From a virus (taxonomy: Duplodnaviria > Heunggongvirae > Uroviricota > Caudoviricetes): DNA of 44,903 nt. Shown piece by piece: positions 3,501 to 35,249 of this stretch (its first letter is position 1; each line of letters starts with the position of its first letter). A program made the position numbers and the translations under genes. The notes beneath the pieces are model-generated. The model was not told the origin of the DNA. It worked only from the letters and a program-made list of their open reading frames with translations, and ran no database searches. The stretch lies in IMG/VR virus record IMGVR_UViG_2718217885_000015; one strand, 5' to 3'.

Positions 3501-4715
3501 GTCAATCCAGTTCACCTCAACGGCATTATGGCGGTCCTTCAGGGCGCTGAAGCTGTAGCGGAACGGCGCGCCATCATCCGGCATCACCACATTACTGCGG
3601 TTATAGGTCCACACCTTATCTGATGGTCGGTCCTGCACGAACGTCAGCGTCTGCCCGTTCCATACCGGCATACAGCGCATCGCCGAGCAGAAATCACTGA
3701 GCACATCCCACGCCTTGCGCTGTGTGGTCAGGTACGCATTACAGGTGATGCGCGGCTCCGTGCCGCCAAAACCGTCCGGCACCGACTGATCGCAATGCTG
3801 GCCGATGACATACAGCGCCCATTTGTCCACATCCGCCGCACCAAGACGTTTCCCCATGCCGTAGCGCGGATGGGTCAGCATATCCCACAGACACCAGGCC
3901 GGGTTGTTGCTGTATGCCGGCTTAAACGTTCCGTCCCAGATACCGCTGTATTGCCGCGTCTGCGGGTTATAGTTCGACGGCACCTGCAGAATGCGCCCGC
4001 GCAGATGATAATTACGGCTCACCTGCTGGCTGCCGAACTGCTCCGAATCCACCTGCACGCCGACCAGTGCCGTGTTCGGGTAGCACTGTTTCACATCGAT
4101 GATTTCAGTGTATGACGACCAGAGCGTTTTGTTCTGCAGCTGGTCTGTGGTGCTGTCCGGCGTCATCCTGCGCATCCGTATATTGAACGGGCGCGGCGGC
4201 AGGTTACCCACCACCACCGAGGCCAGATACTGCGAGGTGGTTTTGCCCTTAATGGTGATGTCTTTTTCCGTCACCCAGCCACCATTACGCTGGATCTGAA
4301 CCAGCAGGCGGACTTCCGACGGATTCCGGTCCCCCTTTGAGGTGGTTTCCACCAGTGCCTGCACACCGAAGGTAAAGCGCAGACGGTCAATGTTTGCAGA
4401 TGTGATGGTCCGGGTGATCGGCGTGTCGTATTTCACTTCCGTACCCAGCACCGTCTCGGAACCGGAGGATTCAAATCCCTCCGGCGGTGCCTGCTCCTGC
4501 TCACCTGCCCGGAACACGACCGTGACACCGGAGATGTTGGTATTCCCCTCAGTGTCCAGCACCGGCGTACTGTTCAGCAGCACGCTTTTTAATCCATCCA
4601 CCGGACCTTCAATCGGCCCTTCGCTGATGGCATCAATCACACTCAGTAACTGCGTGGACTTCAGGTTGTCCTTCGCTTCGCGCGGGGTATGCCCCTTACT
4701 GCTGCCTTTACCCAT
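588..4715 (-). CDS. J: Host specificity / central tail fibre protein J, with a side-tail-fibre-like C-terminal region
   Basis: 1375 aa; the first ~800 residues align with lambda J as I recall it (e.g. [21 protein letters not shown]); the C-terminal ~550 aa carry a conserved tail-fibre motif (TEKGLVQL...AATPKAVK...[13 protein letters not shown]) and a Gly/Tyr-rich distal region instead of the lambda J C-terminus. Confidence 0.9.
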
Positions 4716-17602: not shown

Positions 17603-17805
17603 AACCTCACTCCCAGCGGACGACGGCGACGTCGGGTTGTCCCCAGTACCGACTCCGCATCATTGATCGCCCGGTTAAGCTCATCCAGAGAAGCTGCCGT
17701 ATATTCAATTCTGCGACCATCTTTCTGGACAGACACCACCCGTTTACCGGTTAATAAATCAAGGCGCGCCTGACGCAGCGCCTGCAGTTCAGCGACTGTA
17801 ACCAT
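17599..17805 (-). CDS. W: Head-tail joining protein W
   Basis: 68 aa, between A and B. Confidence 0.85.
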   Translation of the reverse strand: MVTVAELQALRQARLDLLTGKRVVSVQKDGRRIEYTAASLDELNRAINDAESVLGTTRRRRRPLGVRL

Positions 17806-19717
17806 TCACTCCTCCGGACAGCTTCGCTGCCAGTTCTTTAAGGGTTGGCCGGGTCGTCTCTTCTTCCCGGGATTTTGCCAGTACAGCCAGATCAAGCTGC
17901 CAGCGTTGCACGGACACACGTAATGCCGCGTAGGCATACACCAGACAGTCCAGCGCTTCGTTACGCCGCTTTTTGTTATCCCACAGCAGACGCATCTTTC
18001 CTTTTTCCCACTTCTCCACAAGCTCTTCCGCGACCAGTTGCTGCGCTTCTGTCTGCGAAAAAATCTCCGGATCATCAGGAAAACGGATGGCATACGACGT
18101 GGCTTCATCCGCAGGCGTGGGTTCAGCGTTCATACGGGCATAGAGAATTTCTTTTGCGGTGTCCGTCCCCACTTCACACAGATACACGCCCCGCTGATTG
18201 CGGGTTTTTGGCATGGTGATCACCGGCTTGCCATAGACAGATGCGCCTTTTACCGGCAGCACCCGGAAAACACCGTGTTTTTTTGACCTCTGATAAACGA
18301 TTTCGCCATCGATCCCCCCGGTGTCCCAGCAGACACGGGAAATGGTCATTTCGGTTCCGTCTGCATGGCGGTATTTTTTGTTGATCGCCGCATCCACACG
18401 TAACAGCGTCTCTTCCTCATCGGGACGCCCCATAATGATGATTTTATCCACCAGAAAGGCTTCCTCTCCCGGAGCCCATCCCCAGACATACATCTCAAAA
18501 CGGTTTCGCTGCGAGTCAATGCCCGCCGTCAGATAAACCACCCGGGCAGGCACCGCCGCCGTGTAACGCACAACCTTATCCATCAGTACCTGGTGATCGA
18601 GTTTTTCGCCCACGGCCTCTTCCCAGGTCTCGCCCAGCGTGGTGTTCACAAAGGTTTTCAGGCCGTTGGGATCTTTCAGTGCATCCAGCCAGTCATAGAC
18701 TATCTGTACCCAGGTGGTGAACGGACTGTACGCCGTCCAGATATGGAAAGTGATGGAGCGCGGCGGCGGAATTTCATCACCCCGGGCGCAGAAAAACATC
18801 AGGCCGTCACGGGTCCACATGCCCGTGTTTTCACAGATCCACCGCCCGTTGCTCTGGTCAAGCTCAGACTGATGGATCACGCAGCCATAATGTTCACAGA
18901 GGTAGAAAACGCTTTCGGGGCTGTCCTTCTCCCATTTAAGGCCAAAAGGCGTGGATTCATCGCCAAATTTCAGATACTGCGCCTCCCCACAGTGCGGGCA
19001 GGGCACATAAAAACGCATGAAATGTGCCGACTCGTTAGCGGCTTTTTCGATCTGACAGGTGCCTTTGATTTTAGGCGTCGAGCCGCGAATGGATTTTGGC
19101 CATACAGAGCCCTCAATACGCTTATCCCCCAGCAGGGTTGGCGAGCCCTCTTTTTCGACATCCGGCTCGAACGAGGAAAGTTCGTCATAGCAGACCACGT
19201 CCACGGATTTTTCACGGTAGTTTTTGGCGGCAGCGCCGCCCAGGCACCAGAAGCCCACACCCGATGAAAAGCGTTTCAGCGTGAGAGTATTGTCACGATG
19301 TTTACGACCCAGCCATGGGGAAAGGTCTTTCAGGCATGGCACGTCCCGAATCGTCGCCTCCACGTGAGACTTCATAAAATCTTCAGCGGCAGAATCCGTA
19401 GGCTGAAAAAGCAGACTGTTTCGGGATTTATGCTCAATAAAATACCCGACCACCCCCAGCAACATCTTTGTATAGCCAACACGGGCAGATTTAATCAGAT
19501 TAACAGTGCGGATCTGATCATTCCCCATGCTGTTCATGATGGCGATCTGGAATGGCAGCGTTTTCCATTCTCCCTCACCATATGAAGATTCTTTAGGCAG
19601 ATAATAATTTTGATCAGCCCATTCAACTGGCGTCACCGGCAATGCCCTTATCAGGGGCTGTAATGCTGTTGTGACAGCGCTCATCATATTATTCAGTTGT
19701 TGCTCTGATATATTCAT
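17789..19717 (-). CDS. A: Terminase large subunit A
   Basis: Strong match to recalled lambda A (TAVEWAD.NYYLPKES, CPHCGE.QYLKFGD, TTLGETWE); likely start at MNISEQQ (19717) rather than the upstream in-frame ATG at 19774. Confidence 0.95.
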   Translation of the reverse strand: MNISEQQLNNMMSAVTTALQPLIRALPVTPVEWADQNYYLPKESSYGEGEWKTLPFQIAIMNSMGNDQIRTVNLIKSARVGYTKMLLGVVGYFIEHKSRNSLLFQPTDSAAEDFMKSHVEATIRDVPCLKDLSPWLGRKHRDNTLTLKRFSSGVGFWCLGGAAAKNYREKSVDVVCYDELSSFEPDVEKEGSPTLLGDKRIEGSVWPKSIRGSTPKIKGTCQIEKAANESAHFMRFYVPCPHCGEAQYLKFGDESTPFGLKWEKDSPESVFYLCEHYGCVIHQSELDQSNGRWICENTGMWTRDGLMFFCARGDEIPPPRSITFHIWTAYSPFTTWVQIVYDWLDALKDPNGLKTFVNTTLGETWEEAVGEKLDHQVLMDKVVRYTAAVPARVVYLTAGIDSQRNRFEMYVWGWAPGEEAFLVDKIIIMGRPDEEETLLRVDAAINKKYRHADGTEMTISRVCWDTGGIDGEIVYQRSKKHGVFRVLPVKGASVYGKPVITMPKTRNQRGVYLCEVGTDTAKEILYARMNAEPTPADEATSYAIRFPDDPEIFSQTEAQQLVAEELVEKWEKGKMRLLWDNKKRRNEALDCLVYAYAALRVSVQRWQLDLAVLAKSREEETTRPTLKELAAKLSGGVNGYSR

Positions 19718-20198
19718 CGAGTAAATCCGGTAATTTATCCCCCGCCCGCGCACACTGATTTGCCCCCTTCGCAATAAGGGTTTTCAGATGGTCAAGATGG
19801 CGCGGTGTTAAATCAGGAAACTGTCGCTGCATGGATAAAGGGATGGAATCAAGCGTACTGGATAACGCCATTGCCAGCTTACTGAGGGCAAAAATACAGA
19901 ACCCGGTGTCAATAAGTTTTCCTTTTGACACCTCATTTTTTAACTGCTGTGTAACAGCCTGTTCTGCTGTCAGTTCCCATCTGGCAATAAGCAATTTCTC
20001 CTCATAGTCGTCTTCGCTATCGCCATCAGGCACATCGTTTTTACTTCTCCTCAGATACGATATGTAAAAATCGCGCCAGGCATCCAGATCCAGTTGCCCT
20101 CTCTTATTCGATATCGGGGCACCCGGCAATTTCTGCAATCTGCGAAGCTGGCGATCGGTCAGACTTAAATGCCTGGCAACTTCAGTCTGCGTAGCCAC
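19689..20198 (-). CDS. Nu1: Terminase small subunit Nu1
   Basis: 169 aa; first gene after cos; C-terminal similarity to lambda Nu1 (FC.F.LS...LDS.PLS.QR.FP.L..RH.D.LK); N-terminal HTH. Confidence 0.85.
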   Translation of the reverse strand: MATQTEVARHLSLTDRQLRRLQKLPGAPISNKRGQLDLDAWRDFYISYLRRSKNDVPDGDSEDDYEEKLLIARWELTAEQAVTQQLKNEVSKGKLIDTGFCIFALSKLAMALSSTLDSIPLSMQRQFPDLTPRHLDHLKTLIAKGANQCARAGDKLPDLLDEYIRATTE

Positions 20199-20245
20199 TC
20201 CTCACCTCGCAAAAACTCTCACCTCACAATCACAACAAAACCGGT

Positions 20246-20392
20246 CATGTCCGGCTTACATGTCTATTTTTGTTCATGTCCGGTTCACAGAAAACCTGTT
20301 TTTATATTTTTCATATAGTTAACTTGAAGAGAAACCGGACATGGATCCCGGAAAATTTTCATAAATAGCGAAAACCCGCGAGGTCGCCGCCC
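20246..20392 (-). other. cos: cos site: cosN (AGGTCGCCGCCC on plus, 20381-20392) and cosB with three CATGTCCGG repeats
   Basis: The 12-nt sequence is the reverse complement of the lambda cohesive end GGGCGGCGACCT, and its flanks match the lambda cos flank; repeats sit at 20246-20254, 20275-20283 and inverted at 20335-20343, with an AT-rich (IHF-like) stretch between them. Confidence 0.85.
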
Positions 20393-20591
20393 CGTAACAG
20401 GCCGGATCGCCAGAAAGGACCCGAAAATGATAATAATTATCAATTAAATAAAAGTTATCTCAACCGACAAGTTCACCATGAAAGAGGACAAATAATGAGT
20501 TCGGTCTCAATGCATTAATTGATCTGCATCAAATTTAAGTAAAAACATCTTTGGACAATACAGAACACTGCAGTGAATATGGAAAAAGACA

Positions 20592-20804
20592 ATGTCATCG
20601 AAGAACAAAACCAGCAAAACAACAACCCGTAACATCCGTTTTCCCAATCACATGATTGAGCAGATCAATATCGCCCTTGAGCATAAAGGCTCCGGCAACT
20701 TTTCGGCATGGGTTATTGAAGCCTGTCGCCGGAGGCTGGCAGCAGACATAAAATGTGCCCGTCAGTTAACTGTAACAAAGAATGATACACCGTCTGCTCT
20801 GTGA
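20592..20804 (+). CDS. Small ribbon-helix-helix (CopG/Arc-like) protein
   Basis: 70-aa plus-strand ORF in the AT-rich region between cos and the lysis genes; motif NIRFPNHMIEQINIALEHKGSGNFSAWVIEACRRRL looks like an RHH fold; weak ribosome-binding site. Confidence 0.45.
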   Translation: MSSKNKTSKTTTRNIRFPNHMIEQINIALEHKGSGNFSAWVIEACRRRLAADIKCARQLTVTKNDTPSAL

Positions 20805-20949
20805 TAACTGTTCATATAACCATTTCTTTATATTGCTGAATTTACAAAAAGTCGCAGTTATTAGTCGTATTTATTCCGAATTGAAATCATCCGTCATATA
20901 AAATAAAAAAGAATAACAATAATAATCTTCTACCCTTATCAGTACCTTT

Positions 20950-20979
20950 ACTGCTGTGCTCCAACACAGCAGTTTTTTT
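20950..20979 (+). terminator. Rho-independent terminator
   Basis: Perfect 9-bp stem ACTGCTGTG/CACAGCAGT with a 6-nt loop, followed by a T7 run. Confidence 0.6.
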
Positions 20980-21603
20980 GATTATGCTCACATATTTTTC
21001 ATCCCCACCGCACTGCACATTATAACTGTTGCTTTTCAATTCAGGCTTTGTGCAGGTATGTCTGAATCTCCTCCGGGAGAGGTCTTCATCGTTATCAGCC
21101 CCAAAACACACCAGCGACACTGACAAAGAGCCTGCGAGTGCAGTTGCCCCGTTTTCGTTTTATGATGTATTCACCCAGTCAAATAATGAGCAAATTCAAT
21201 CCATGTCAGACGGCAGAGAATCATAAAATTTAACCATCGTGCTTACATAAACAATCCGATAAAGACTTAACATACTTAAAATCGCATATTGCATAAGAAT
21301 AAATAATAAGTCATCAAAAAACATCGGGCAAAACTACCGCAACTCCAGTTAAAAAGACAATATATTAATCCAGCGACCTCATTTATTATTCAGAAATGCT
21401 TAATAATAAGATATTTCCTGTTATTCCTTTATGGAGATCGGGTAACGGCTCCATGCCAGTCTTGTTGAATGGCTCAAAAAATAAGAGAATAATTCATAAC
21501 ATATATTGTAATTCAGGCTCGGTTATTTCGAATTGAATACTTGCATTAAAATCTGATAAAAAATTCGTCATAACAACAACATTCTCTTCTGCATGTGCCA
21601 TAA

Positions 21604-21632
21604 CCTGCCGTAACAACCCGGCAGGTTTTTTT
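21604..21632 (+). terminator. Rho-independent terminator
   Basis: Stem CCTGCCG/CGGCAGG followed by a T7 run. Confidence 0.5.
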
Positions 21633-21832
21633 ATTGAATAAATTTCCGGTTTCTTCCACCATCGCACCGGCCAGGCGACTATGAGGGGACAACGCCGCGC
21701 TCCGTTAACGCAGTAAACCCCGGTGTGTATCGTTTTTGATTATCCCCGCACACTCGCGCAGAGGAGTCTCCCCGTAGGGCTGCGGTCTCTGTTAATGCGG
21801 AAATACGGCGACGATACAACGCATTGAAAAAA

Positions 21833-22291
21833 CTATTTCAGGCACTGAGTACGGATATATTCCTGAAGCGTTCTCAATGCTGCCTGGTCGTTGATGATTC
21901 CGTCTCTGATACCGAGAACGTTTCGTCCAGCAACTTGAGAGAGTTCGACGCTGGCATCATTGCCCACGCGGGCGGTGGCGGTGGCTTCACGCACGGAACC
22001 TGAGCAGGTGGCGTTGATCCGCAGGCGCTTACGACCAGCGGTAACATCAGCACGCAGAGTTTCATTTTCAGCTCTCGCATCGGCTAATTCCCTCGAGTAT
22101 TTTGCATCGAGCGCAGCAACATCGTGCTGGCGCTGCTGCATATCAGTAATGGTGACGTTCGCCAGCTTCAGCTCACTGACTTTTTTATCGCGCTGCGCTT
22201 TGTAAGTGATGGCGTTATCGCGGTAATGGTTTGTTGCCAGACACAGCGCACCACAGAGCACCAGCAGAATAACGGTAAACGCGGAAAGCAT
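21833..22291 (-). CDS. Rz: Spanin inner-membrane subunit Rz
   Basis: Start at MLSAFTVILLVLCGALCLATNHYRDNAITYKAQRDK, close to recalled lambda Rz; the longer ORF call to 22504 is an upstream in-frame extension. Confidence 0.85.
   Translation of the reverse strand: MLSAFTVILLVLCGALCLATNHYRDNAITYKAQRDKKVSELKLANVTITDMQQRQHDVAALDAKYSRELADARAENETLRADVTAGRKRLRINATCSGSVREATATARVGNDASVELSQVAGRNVLGIRDGIINDQAALRTLQEYIRTQCLK
21874..22080 (-). CDS. Rz1: Spanin outer-membrane lipoprotein Rz1, embedded in Rz in the +1 frame
   Basis: Lipobox LVVSAC plus a proline-rich stretch CVKPPPPPAWAM, as in lambda Rz1; probably starts at the second Met (22065). Confidence 0.75.
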   Translation of the reverse strand: MRELKMKLCVLMLPLVVSACGSTPPAQVPCVKPPPPPAWAMMPASNSLKLLDETFSVSETESSTTRQH

Positions 22292-22572
22292 TCGGTTTAT
22301 GCTCACCCCAGCATCCCCGACGAAGACAACATCATCCAGCCCAGGGAAAGAAAAAGAGCAACCAGCATCAGTGAAAATGAAATGCCGACAATTACACAGA
22401 GGATCTTCGCCAGCGTTATGAGTTTGTCTGATATCATTGGTCACCACTCCATCAATCCGTCTTTGTGATTTTTCCTTTGCCTGTATCAGCCAGGACAAAA
22501 TCAATCAGCAGATTCGCTTCGTTTATCAACGTGCGAATTTTTGATACATGTGCAGCTTTAACCGACTTCCAC

Positions 22573-23022
22573 TCACTCAGCCCGGTACCAAACAAACTGG
22601 CGATGTTTTTTATCCCGTTTCATGTCAGCGCATACCTGATTGAGTTCTTCCATCACGCTCATTCGACGGGGATTAACGACAAAACCCTTCGTCCAGTATT
22701 CATAGAGAACATCGTCGCACTCTTCCTGATACTGAATGACCCTGTCGCGGATTTCAGGTTTAACTTTGTTGGGATTGATGGTTTGTAACCAGCCCGCAAG
22801 TTTTCGAAGTGGCAGGGATACCATATTGCGTCGTTTCCCATCCTCAGCAACCATAATGATTTCCGTTATAGTTGACGCAAAACGCTGTCTTAACTTAGCC
22901 AACTGTGATTGCCAGGCTAGCCCCATCCCCGCAACAACAGGCTTCATGGGAACGTACGGCTCGCCATTATGGTTAACCACATAAAGAGAGTTGCCGTGAA
23001 ACGGCACGGTCATCATATTCAT
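22573..23022 (-). CDS. Phage antirepressor-like protein (Ant/KilA-N-like) between endolysin and Rz
   Basis: 149-aa ORF; I recall a similar antirepressor-like gene between R and Rz in some E. coli lambdoid prophages; assignment by position and weak motif resemblance only. Confidence 0.45.
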   Translation of the reverse strand: MNMMTVPFHGNSLYVVNHNGEPYVPMKPVVAGMGLAWQSQLAKLRQRFASTITEIIMVAEDGKRRNMVSLPLRKLAGWLQTINPNKVKPEIRDRVIQYQEECDDVLYEYWTKGFVVNPRRMSVMEELNQVCADMKRDKKHRQFVWYRAE

Positions 23023-25141: not shown

Positions 25142-25443
25142 ACCCCGTCTCCCGTTATCCGGAAGCTGACAACAATAAAAAAGCCACCCGTTAATTACTG
25201 ATGGCTCTGATGCATAAACGTCATCATTCCTGACCGTTATGATTGACAATGGTTATCATTTTTATATAAAAATACTCCCGATATGTGTTACATATCATTT
25301 CTCCACGGGGAATATCCCCACGCCAGCGTCAGACTCGTTTTCCCGTTCTCTTCTGTGCTGGCGTTTTTTTATTATGATGTCGGTGCATTTATTTCCAGCA
25401 CCAGGCTTTCAATCTCAACACCATACGCGGAATTTTTGGGCGT

Positions 25444-25469
25444 AAAAAATCCCCTCCGGTGAGGGGATT
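25444..25469 (-). terminator. Rho-independent terminator upstream of the holin (candidate tR')
   Basis: Stem AATCCCCTC/GAGGGGATT with a 4-nt loop; the A-run on the plus strand gives a U-run on the minus strand. Confidence 0.5.
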
Positions 25470-25701
25470 TGCTTATGTAAACATTTACACTGCTTACCTG
25501 CATGGTGCCGGGTGCCTCCCGGTGAATTCAGTATCAGCACCTGAATCCGCAATTATCCCATATACCTACTTGCTGATTGCCCCTCCGCACAGGGGGATTC
25601 ACCATGCGAAATTTTTTTAACAAATGCTCAGTCTGACAGGCAACTGTCAACTGACTGAATTGTGAGACAATTAAAATTTTCGGGGCGTAACTGATACCCG
25701 G

Positions 25702-26467: not shown

Positions 26468-26544
26468 TGGCGCGTTGTACTGGATTCGAACCAGTGACCG
26501 ATTGCTTAGAAGGCAATTGCTCTGTCCGACTGAGCTAACAACGC
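26468..26544 (-). tRNA. argO: tRNA-Arg (anticodon UCU)
   Basis: Folded by hand: acceptor GCGTTGT/ACAACGC, D-arm GCTC/GAGC, anticodon stem ATTGC/GCAAT with loop CTTCTAA, T-arm ACTGG-TTCGAAT-CCAGT, encoded CCA; 77 nt. Confidence 0.85.
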
Positions 26545-26645: not shown

Positions 26646-26721
26646 TGGTGGCCCTTGCTGGATTTGAACCAGCGACCTGGCGATTATGAGTCGCTCGCTC
26701 TCACCACTGAGCTAAAGGGCC
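26646..26721 (-). tRNA. ileZ: tRNA with anticodon CAU (Ile2/lysidine-type or Met; ileZ-like position)
   Basis: Acceptor GGCCCTT/AAGGGCC, anticodon loop CTCATAA, T-arm GCTGG-TTCAAAT-CCAGC, CCA encoded; 76 nt. Confidence 0.85.
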
Positions 26722-34649: not shown

Positions 34650-35249
34650 GGCAGCCTCCGTATGCAATGGATAACTTCCACCACCGGAAACGCCAATTTC
34701 GCTGGTGGTGAACTGAGCAGGGTTGGCGTAACCGGCGCATACGGAAACCGGCGCACCTTTCGGTGCCCCCACCCAGCCCACCATAATTTGGGTATAGCTG
34801 AGTTGTAGCAACAAAAAAGACGCTAACGCGCCAATTGTCGCCGTATGCAATTCCAGGACGCCAATCCCGGCACCCGCTTTATAAGGTGCCTGAACAGTGT
34901 AACGTCCCGGAATGGCAGAATCAATGTGCTGGTGGTCCTTCACACTCAACAAAATCACGCCTGAATTTCCACAAAGGGCTAAAGCACTCATGCGGGTAGT
35001 CTTTGCGAAGATAGATAACGCGCTGTGTTTCTGGCTCCCAACGAATAACATGAACATAAAGTCCTCTTCCGTCACGAAACCAGCGGTTAAGTTCCTGCAC
35101 AACTCGCCACCCACAGTCAGGTAAAGTTCTCTGTGGTTACTTACAGCCAGGAGATTTGGTAATCTGCATTCATGCCGTAACAACAGGTGTTCAGCGACCC
35201 TGACCACCAGCTGTTGCGACAAACGGTTATTTGCCGTTAAACTGTTCAT
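34650..35249 (-). CDS. Uncertain: upstream in-frame part of the 382-aa ORF (separate gene, N-terminal domain of a longer Rha protein, or non-coding)
   Basis: In-frame ORF continuing upstream of the Rha start; its ATG at 35249 overlaps the stop of the cII-like gene, which suggests coupling, but the sequence has no recognisable domain. Confidence 0.25.

Follow-up and report, generated by a model that had tools for sequence, protein, structure and literature searches.

The cos–Rz gap of a lambda-like prophage as a probable mosaic of small modules: a ylcI gene, an allele of the small RNA HnrS and a predicted diverged HnrS paralogue

HnrS, characterised in 2025–26, was the first small RNA (sRNA) of a phage shown to act against silencing by Hha/H-NS (Poudyal et al., PLoS Pathog 2026, PMC13502914). 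The name replaces EcOnc10–12 of Escherichia coli Sakai and designates a 66-nt Hfq-associated sRNA whose ends have been mapped, with a primary 5′ end seen by differential RNA sequencing (dRNA-seq) in Sakai; it represses hha, a trans target confirmed by compensatory mutations, and is perfectly complementary to the final 15 nt of mazF, a pairing for which no function was found (PMC13502914). Earlier, the interval ECs1786...ECs1788 of Sakai prophage Sp9 had been recorded as the 15th most Hfq-crosslinked intergenic region, with an orphan CRAC peak, EcOnc12, that has identical copies in Sp12 (EcOnc10) and Sp10 (EcOnc11) (Tree et al. 2014, PMC4104026). Here we analyze positions 20393–21832 of the 44,903-nt virus sequence IMGVR_UViG_2718217885_000015 (this whole stretch is called the window below), a lambda-like prophage whose late genes lie on the minus strand. 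From its homology, anatomy, conservation pattern and predicted pairings, we consider it likely that this island, which fills the moron-tolerant gap from Rz to cos, is pieced together as a mosaic from small modules, each with a promoter of its own, that would be expressed in the lysogen against the late operon.

A preliminary description made from the letters alone had placed two strong plus-strand terminators in the island and had proposed small proteins, an sRNA or a decayed cargo gene. Both terminators were confirmed (Table 1), terminator-like sites in the region numbering 5 against 1.9 ± 1.4 in shuffles, and it is the sRNA proposal that was supported. The 172 bp that follow ylcI (20808–20979) match about 550 E. 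coli genomes at 80–90% identity (about 87% in the records listed); a YlcI/YnfO gene is always adjacent to this HnrS-type segment, and Sakai Sp9 is among the matches. We shifted the coordinates of Table S2 of PMC4104026 by +137 bp to NC_002695.2, the shift having been fixed by locating the published EcOnc03 sequence, and EcOnc12 then fell on AUAAUAAUCUUCUACCC...hairpin-U7, directly after Sp9 ylcI and on the ylcI strand. Near 1.77 Mb the published EcOnc coordinates thus lie about +137 bp off the Sakai RefSeq sequence, and left uncorrected they make EcOnc12 appear in the conserved block beside Rz. The Sp9 sequence carries both signatures of HnrS, namely the 15 nt complementary to the 3′ end of mazF (CTACCCAATCAGTAC in Sakai HnrS, which read in reverse complement gives GTACTGATTGGGTAG of mazF, as checked against K-12 mazF) and the anti-AGAAG seed.

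Positions 20585–20979 of the window are 83.7% identical to the ylcI–hnrS segment of Sp9, and the sRNAs align in register. Like HnrS of Sakai Sp9, Sp10 and Sp12, sRNA 1 of the window lies downstream of a DUF3950 gene and upstream of Rz, on the strand opposite to Rz, belongs to the same size class, and has the same promoter motif and a homologous terminator. Its promoter layout matches −35 and −12 relative to the Sakai HnrS 5′ end as we place it. Nucleotides 9–23 of sRNA 1, AAUAAUCUUCUACCC, are identical to the hha seed of Sakai HnrS, and the duplex predicted in silico with the ribosome-binding site of hha (−10..+4) is identical for both sRNAs, at −12.1 kcal/mol. The differences lie 3′ of the seed: besides further changes, AA has become UUA in the mazF-complementary stretch, which reads CTACCCTTATCAGTAC in the window, so that the perfect 15-nt complementarity is lost and the mazF pairing is broken in sRNA 1. 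We conclude from these sequence comparisons that terminator 1 belongs to a new allele of the known sRNA HnrS. Expression, Hfq binding and hha repression are established in the literature for the orthologue, an abundant sRNA of enterohaemorrhagic E. coli (EHEC), and by analogy sRNA 1 would be expressed in this prophage and bind Hfq.

The unit that ends at terminator 2 (21520–21640) has in common with the HnrS unit the TTATTYCGARTTGAA motif, a similar spacing from it to TAAAAA, the 5′ sequence AUAACAA, a CUUCU core and the terminator frame CTGCYG...CRGCAG-T7. Local alignment of the two units scored 64, whereas dinucleotide shuffles scored 24.9 ± 4.4, with a maximum of 41.5. One terminator pair varies in a compensatory manner, being U.G in Sakai, U-A in sRNA 1 and C-G in sRNA 2. 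On this evidence of sequence the terminator 2 unit is a diverged paralogue of HnrS, with homology beyond chance. The predicted fold of sRNA 2 (−16.7 kcal/mol) is mostly terminator and leaves the 5′ half unstructured. Unlike HnrS, sRNA 2 has another 22-nt seed and another stem extension, and it is rare, occurring in 42 of 5426 complete E. coli genomes and 17 IMG/VR loci as against about 550 genomes for the HnrS-type segment; moreover, the HnrS paper reports one copy per prophage, whereas the window has two in tandem. When 185,579 species-representative genomes were scanned for the sRNA 2 seed and for the HnrS promoter plus seed, neither was found. To judge by these scans, both types seem restricted to a fraction of E. 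coli.

The whole tandem arrangement recurs as a second allele, 75% identical, in OkiPb01678 (locus L009), where the phage has another packaging module. When the window is compared with L009, the 22-nt seed is 100% identical and the stem arms are kept, while the terminator loop has an indel and the flanks are 50–70% identical. In prophages of pig enterotoxigenic E. coli (ETEC) and of O141 strains, the sRNA 2 unit is found alone beside Rz, without ylcI, at 99% identity and with its left breakpoint at 21449. Such a pattern of conservation fits a functional, self-contained cassette better than it fits debris.

Since the single-stranded region of sRNA 2 has diverged, its target set is most likely shifted or different. 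Its seed differs from that of HnrS; an alternative duplex with hha (−14..+4), predicted at −13.5 kcal/mol, did not exceed shuffles (p 0.14), and the validated HnrS duplex did not do so either (p 0.09). The CA-rich 5′ end of sRNA 2 was predicted to pair with the R1 region of GcvB at −20.8 kcal/mol (p 0.04), compared with −22.3 (p 0.036) for the positive control AgvB and −9.9 for the negative control AsxR; we treat this pairing as a lead, not a finding. When the window itself was searched for trans targets of the two sRNAs, only self-antisense sites stood out. We tentatively propose that sRNA 2 is a functional HnrS-family member that arose by duplication at Rz–cos and retargeting of the seed, and whose CAUUCUCUUCUGCAUGUGCCAU and CA-rich 5′ end address targets other than or besides hha, possibly as an AgvB-like sponge of GcvB; we hold this to be possible rather than probable.

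Several observations weigh against two active sRNA genes in the island. The putative −10 elements, TAAAAA, do not have the conserved final T and were missed by a generic promoter scan, and promoter-like sites are no commoner in the region than in shuffles. The expression of sRNA 2 is a prediction from its sequence, and only two sRNA 2 alleles exist in the collections searched, which reduces the covariation support to a single pair. Predicted sRNA–hha duplexes did not rise above shuffled controls (p 0.09–0.14). As this was so even for validated HnrS, in silico pairing with hha cannot discriminate.

In three pig-strain genomes the PGAP annotation places a 55-amino-acid (aa) 'hypothetical protein' antisense to sRNA 2 (window 21497–21667, minus strand; 3547–3714 in locus L006). 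Its frame survives without indels in the diverged allele, with 9/6/5 substitutions at codon positions 1/2/3 and no third-position bias. We considered a type I toxin–antitoxin system and rejected it: the open reading frame (ORF) opposite sRNA 2 is acidic (MAHAEENVVVMTNFLSDFNASIQFEITEPELQYML), shows this 9/6/5 pattern and is not a conserved hydrophobic toxin.

Other prophage sRNAs of this kind are the anti-sRNAs AgvB and AsxR of lambdoid prophages (Rfam RF02702, RF02703), which resemble the island units in being short (51–60 nt), Hfq-bound and located in moron sites, with one end diversifying; AgvB in addition pairs with GcvB R1 about as strongly as sRNA 2. They differ in lying downstream of PR′, before the lysis genes, and in having no sequence similarity to the island units. 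In addition, it is their 3′ part that is conserved and their 5′ part that varies, whereas the island units keep the promoter and the extreme 5′ end. Their location downstream of PR′ led us to reject AgvB or AsxR as the identity of the island sRNAs, and the Pas sRNAs are set apart by their description (80–240 nt; PasB is far more prevalent than sRNA 2). An Rfam 15 covariance scan of 19500–23000 with E values up to 1 returned nothing in the island and one chance small nucleolar RNA match outside it, and a scan of the whole window at gathering thresholds likewise left the island without a match; HnrS is absent from Rfam 15. No description of sRNA 2 was found in the literature. It appears that sRNA 2 and the tandem arrangement are undescribed, while sRNA 1, ylcI and the Fur site are of known kinds.

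The 70-aa gene on the strand opposite the late genes, which the preliminary description had taken for a ribbon-helix-helix (RHH) protein gene, matches Pfam PF13132 (DUF3950) at 71.9 bits (cut-off 25; E 3.8e-20) and phrog_949 (E 2.6e-32), and is named 'YlcI/YnfO family protein' by PGAP. It has 807 homologues, nearly all in E. coli, whose N-terminal 49 aa are almost invariant and whose tails vary. Compared with the 75%-identical L009 allele, substitutions fall 3/2/13 on codon positions 1/2/3, which indicates that ylcI is under purifying selection. The gene is no island-specific cargo but a conserved neighbour of cos. In DLP12 of K-12 its homologue ylcI has the same place and orientation, beside cos and nohD, and lambda itself (NC_001416, 48109–48303, minus strand; 2710–2904 in locus L004) holds an intact 64-aa DUF3950 ORF that is identical to K-12 YlcI and is not annotated in the lambda reference record. 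A DUF3950 gene also lies between Rz and the HNH/terminase genes in Shiga toxin (Stx)-type phages (Sp9, BP-4795). With YlcI/YnfO of K-12 DLP12 and Qin the window protein shares its sequence (72% identity over 65 aa with YlcI), its position and orientation beside cos and noh, and a Fur box upstream; it differs from them in its divergent C-terminal tail.

Its AlphaFold2 model (predicted local distance difference test score 75) has an extended N-terminus followed by helices at residues 19–32 and 34–64, and the G-x-S/N turn typical of RHH proteins is present in the sequence. In a fold comparison the top matches of the model were RHH antitoxins, at scores below statistical significance, and a YlcI profile gave zero matches among PDB sequences. 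The RHH label is thus consistent with the model and not secured by the fold matches. We regard YlcI as probably an RHH DNA-binding protein, a fold that is plausible from the model without being statistically established.

Upstream of ylcI, positions 20393–20737 align with lambda 48502–48158 at 74.7% identity, and a three-way alignment was made with DLP12. By position in lambda, cosQ presumably lies within 20393–20591. The Fur box in this DNA is the sole match of at least 16/19 across the 44.9-kb window and is kept in lambda and DLP12. Promoter-like hexamers overlap it, with −10-like GATAAT on both strands, and the near-consensus 19-bp box together with the overlapping hexamers suggests a Fur-regulated promoter. 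From the box it is about 150 bp downstream to ylcI and about 233 bp to the start codon of Nu1. The orthologous K-12 sites, which precede nohA and nohB, belong to the strongest Fur clusters predicted genome-wide; at nohA, Fur binding was confirmed in a gel shift and in an in vivo titration assay, and the cluster at nohB is a predicted one (Chen et al. 2007, PMC2189734). For the site beside cos, Fur binding is thus known from the orthologue. The K-12 sites likewise lie about 233 bp from a Nu1-like start codon, directly inside cos, but they were historically attributed to the noh genes, ylcI then being unannotated. Judged by its placement, the box would be at least as well placed for control of ylcI as for control of noh/Nu1. 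A second element, the stretch attaattgatctgcatcaa with its perfect inverted repeat, is 100% conserved in the window, lambda and DLP12, where its surroundings are about 75% identical. We take the inverted repeat as a candidate operator that YlcI, an RHH-like protein, might bind.

Between the two sRNA units lies an AT-rich spacer, part of what had been described as about 1 kb with no ORF of 60 codons or more. Two longer ORFs with TTG starts, of 79 and 65 aa, do exist there (Table 1), but neither has a match in Pfam or PHROG, and in the diverged allele neither frame stays intact. In L009 a single 79-aa ORF spans the two window frames; compared with the window it shows 25/19/24 mismatches by codon position, and its frame is interrupted by four indels with five inserted bases in all. 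Because the mismatches are flat, the frame is broken and the ORFs are without family match, we consider the spacer non-coding. No Shine-Dalgarno sequences were found at the candidate ORF starts. The spacer was found only in 19 genomes with a near-identical island (at least 99%), in 4 genomes with the allele of about 75% identity and in IMG/VR contigs, and it gave zero matches in phage and plasmid collections. Searching the island by tblastn with BorD, YbcV, YbcW, lambdap78 and lambdap79 gave a best E value of 0.085 over 15 aa.

Two parts of the spacer deserve mention. Its first 90 bp or so after terminator 1 (20981–21072) are 78–96% identical between alleles, like the sRNA genes themselves, and no ORF, terminator or convincing promoter in this segment accounts for the conservation. 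Further on, 21273–21324 resembles the promoter and 5′ region of sRNA 2 (p about 0.007 for a local score of 39.5). It may represent a third sRNA unit in decay, which hints that the region grows by duplication.

On the other side of sRNA 2, the conserved block of about 200 bp, which always stands beside Rz or, in lambda, beside bor, is 79–100% identical across ten variants, and its homologue in Stx phages matches it at about 90%. Positions 21708–21823 align at 78.6% with lambda 46981–46868, the lambda segment between lambdap78 and bor, and it follows from this alignment that the lambda bor cassette is an insertion between the block and Rz. That the island sits where lambda carries the bor moron had been noted before and is correct: the insertion point maps to about 21823–21833, and nothing is inserted there in the window. 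No RNA-fold signal was detected in the block on either strand (z +1.44 and −1.10). A 46-aa ORF in the block (21679–21819, minus strand) matches phrog_6954, labelled 'Rz-like spanin', with an E value of 1.4e-14. We rejected the block as a gene: in Sp9 this frame contains a stop and lacks a start codon, so that the ORF is not maintained there, and the block differs from its DLP12 counterpart by indels of 12 nt and 1 nt. Family phrog_6954 probably consists of spurious ORF calls. Compared with the Rz–cos interval of lambda and DLP12 as a whole, the locus has the same orientation logic, in which lysogen-expressed genes face the late operon, the same cos-proximal ylcI and the same conserved block, but bor, ybcV and ybcW are absent without trace and two sRNA units with a spacer stand in their place.

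The conservation pattern at terminator 2 also bears on a simpler account, in which only sRNA 1 is functional and unequal recombination between HnrS-type loci has left the second unit and the spacer behind as inert debris, terminator 2 persisting as a shield of Rz against antisense read-through. The rarity of the unit and its two alleles would suit such an origin, as would junctions that lie exactly at module borders (20979/20980 and 21449) and the decayed promoter-like copy at 21273–21324, which shows that units decay here. However, the seed was kept intact between alleles whose flanks and terminator loop changed, the promoter motif and its spacing were retained, and the unit travels alone into unrelated pig ETEC prophages, so that debris seems to us rather unlikely as an explanation. 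That the 1 kb or so is decayed protein-coding cargo or contains translated small ORFs, as the preliminary description had allowed, is highly improbable. The ORFs of 79 and 65 codons, the single ORF of L009 and the PGAP ORF of the three pig strains could be cited in its favor, but none of the spacer ORFs belongs to a Pfam or PHROG family and nothing in the spacer resembles bor, ybcV, ybcW or the phage and plasmid records. The 25/19/24 and 9/6/5 patterns, set against 3/2/13 for ylcI, point the same way as the frame-breaking indels and the missing Shine-Dalgarno sequences.

The arrangement of sRNA 1 behind ylcI could also mean that it is a 3′-untranslated-region product of the ylcI messenger RNA (mRNA), both being under Fur and YlcI control. 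It begins and ends 110–175 nt downstream of the ylcI stop, on the same strand and with no intervening terminator, and the ylcI–HnrS pair is inherited as a single block in the roughly 550 genomes. We nevertheless find this origin improbable, given the primary 5′ end of the 66-nt HnrS in Sakai dRNA-seq (PMC13502914), a promoter-like motif that is 80–88% conserved where the ylcI 3′ end just before it is 46–62% conserved, and a paralogue that is found without ylcI. Finally, the sRNAs might act mainly in cis, as antisense to the Rz–cos–Nu1 late transcript, and modulate mRNA processing or the expression of packaging genes. Within the window, each sRNA indeed forms its best duplex by far with the strand opposite its own gene (−55 kcal/mol), and the genes are always inside the late operon; against this stand the validated trans target of HnrS, hha, and the fact that no ORF under selection lies opposite the sRNAs. 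A mainly cis-acting role is therefore, in our view, quite doubtful, and a mosaic of independently promoted modules remains the reading that we favor.

The borders of the island are well defined. The lambda left end, GGGCGGCGACCT, is present in reverse complement as AGGTCGCCGCCC at 20381–20392, and the alignment with the lambda right end begins at 20393, so that 20393 corresponds to lambda bp 48502. From the positions of Nu1, the cohesive end and Rz, it follows that 20393–21832 is exactly the cos-to-Rz gap. The gap had been called AT-rich, which applies to most of it: the GC content is 0.33–0.41 across about 20300–21650 compared with 0.45–0.56 in the flanks, but the last 180 bp (21650–21832) reach 0.47–0.52. 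The island is 100% identical in E. coli 09-00049 (NZ_CP015228), where the YlcI/YnfO gene is its sole PGAP annotation. Among the 5426 complete E. coli genomes, 19 contain the entire island at 99% identity or more and 1853 contain portions of it. With lambda and DLP12, blastn matches were restricted to 20393–20737 and 21708–21823, and relative to Sp9 the island has an extra 634 bp (20980–21613) between the HnrS terminator and the block adjacent to Rz.

Table 1. Coordinates of features in and around the cos–Rz island (window positions).
Feature	Position	Strand	Remarks
Large terminase subunit	17789–19774	minus	
Nu1	19689–20198	minus	Pfam Phage_Nu1
cosN 12-nt cohesive-end sequence	20381–20392		island boundary
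Right-end cos-proximal DNA, also ylcI upstream region	20393–20591		homologous to last ~190 bp of lambda
Fur box GAAAATGATAATAATTATC	20423–20441		17/19 consensus matches
Perfect inverted repeat TTGAT-ctgc-ATCAA (TTGATctgcATCAA)	20519–20532		~60 bp upstream of ylcI start; overlaps possible −35
ylcI/ynfO-family gene, 70 aa	20592–20804	plus	opposite late genes; DUF3950
Putative promoter of sRNA 1	20881–20909	plus	TTGAAA, 17-nt spacer, TAAAAA
ORF, 79 aa	20887–21126	minus	TTG start
Predicted sRNA 1, HnrS allele, about 64–67 nt	20913–20979	plus	terminator stem 20950–20973, then U7
hha-pairing seed of sRNA 1, AATAATCTTCTACCC	20921–20935	plus	
Intrinsic terminator 1	stem 20950–20973	plus	9 bp, then T7
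AT-rich non-coding spacer	20981–21504		first ~90 bp conserved
ORF, 65 aa	21029–21226	plus	TTG start
Putative promoter of sRNA 2	21533–21562	plus	TTGAAT, 18-nt spacer, TAAAAA; in register with HnrS promoter
Predicted sRNA 2, diverged HnrS paralogue, about 63 nt	21570–21632	plus	terminator stem 21602–21627, then U7
Conserved 22-nt seed of sRNA 2, CATTCTCTTCTGCATGTGCCAT	21580–21601	plus	
Intrinsic terminator 2	stem 21602–21627	plus	9 bp, then T7
Conserved GC-richer block	21635–21832		adjoins Rz
Rz	ends 21833	minus	Pfam Phage_lysis, E 2.3e-37
Rfam matches outside the island	25438–25636, 34701–34788, 34813–34889, 26471–26544, 26649–26721	minus (all)	

Elsewhere in the prophage, Rfam matches at gathering score comprise STnc100 (148.7 bits), C4 antisense RNA, isrK and two transfer RNAs, and the prophage thus carries several more sRNA genes beyond the cos–Rz island. 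Between endolysin and Rz there is an ORF with the N-terminal domain of the P22 antirepressor (22573–23022, minus strand; Pfam P22_AR_N, E 2.1e-45), whose counterpart in the source genome is marked as frameshifted by PGAP.

Read from cos towards Rz, the proposed mosaic would consist of the Fur box and inverted repeat leading to ylcI, the hnrS allele, the spacer, the hnrS paralogue and the conserved block. The first 200 bp beside cos would be lambda-type right-end DNA carrying the Fur box and the inverted repeat upstream of ylcI, and YlcI, as a probable RHH DNA binder, would regulate itself or a nearby promoter under control of iron through Fur. A sigma-70-type promoter some 110 nt beyond ylcI would give rise to the HnrS-allele sRNA of about 65 nt that ends at terminator 1; this sRNA would lower Hha and thereby relieve Hha/H-NS silencing of horizontally acquired genes. 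Some 650 bp further on, the paralogous unit, with the same promoter architecture and terminator frame, would produce an sRNA of about 63 nt that ends at terminator 2. The two unidirectional terminators would keep transcripts from the sRNA side from entering Rz in antisense, and the spacer is probably debris of duplication or recombination between HnrS-type loci.

If sRNA 2 is a functional, retargeted member of the HnrS family, as we hold possible, a two-gene sRNA array would tune both xenogeneic silencing and the core sRNA network of the host, and the Fur-box/YlcI module would add iron-responsive control. For lambda-type cos regions in general, the comparison brings out two overlooked features, an intact DUF3950 gene that is unannotated in the lambda reference and a strong Fur site whose K-12 nohA orthologue has been verified. 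As for the HnrS family, our sequence comparisons indicate that at least one diverged paralogue of hnrS exists, its seed being different and strictly conserved, that two family members can stand in tandem in one prophage, and that promoter–sRNA–terminator cassettes move as self-contained units between unrelated lambdoid phages. The locus does not overturn current understanding; it would provide a concrete case of how the sRNA repertoire of prophages diversifies.

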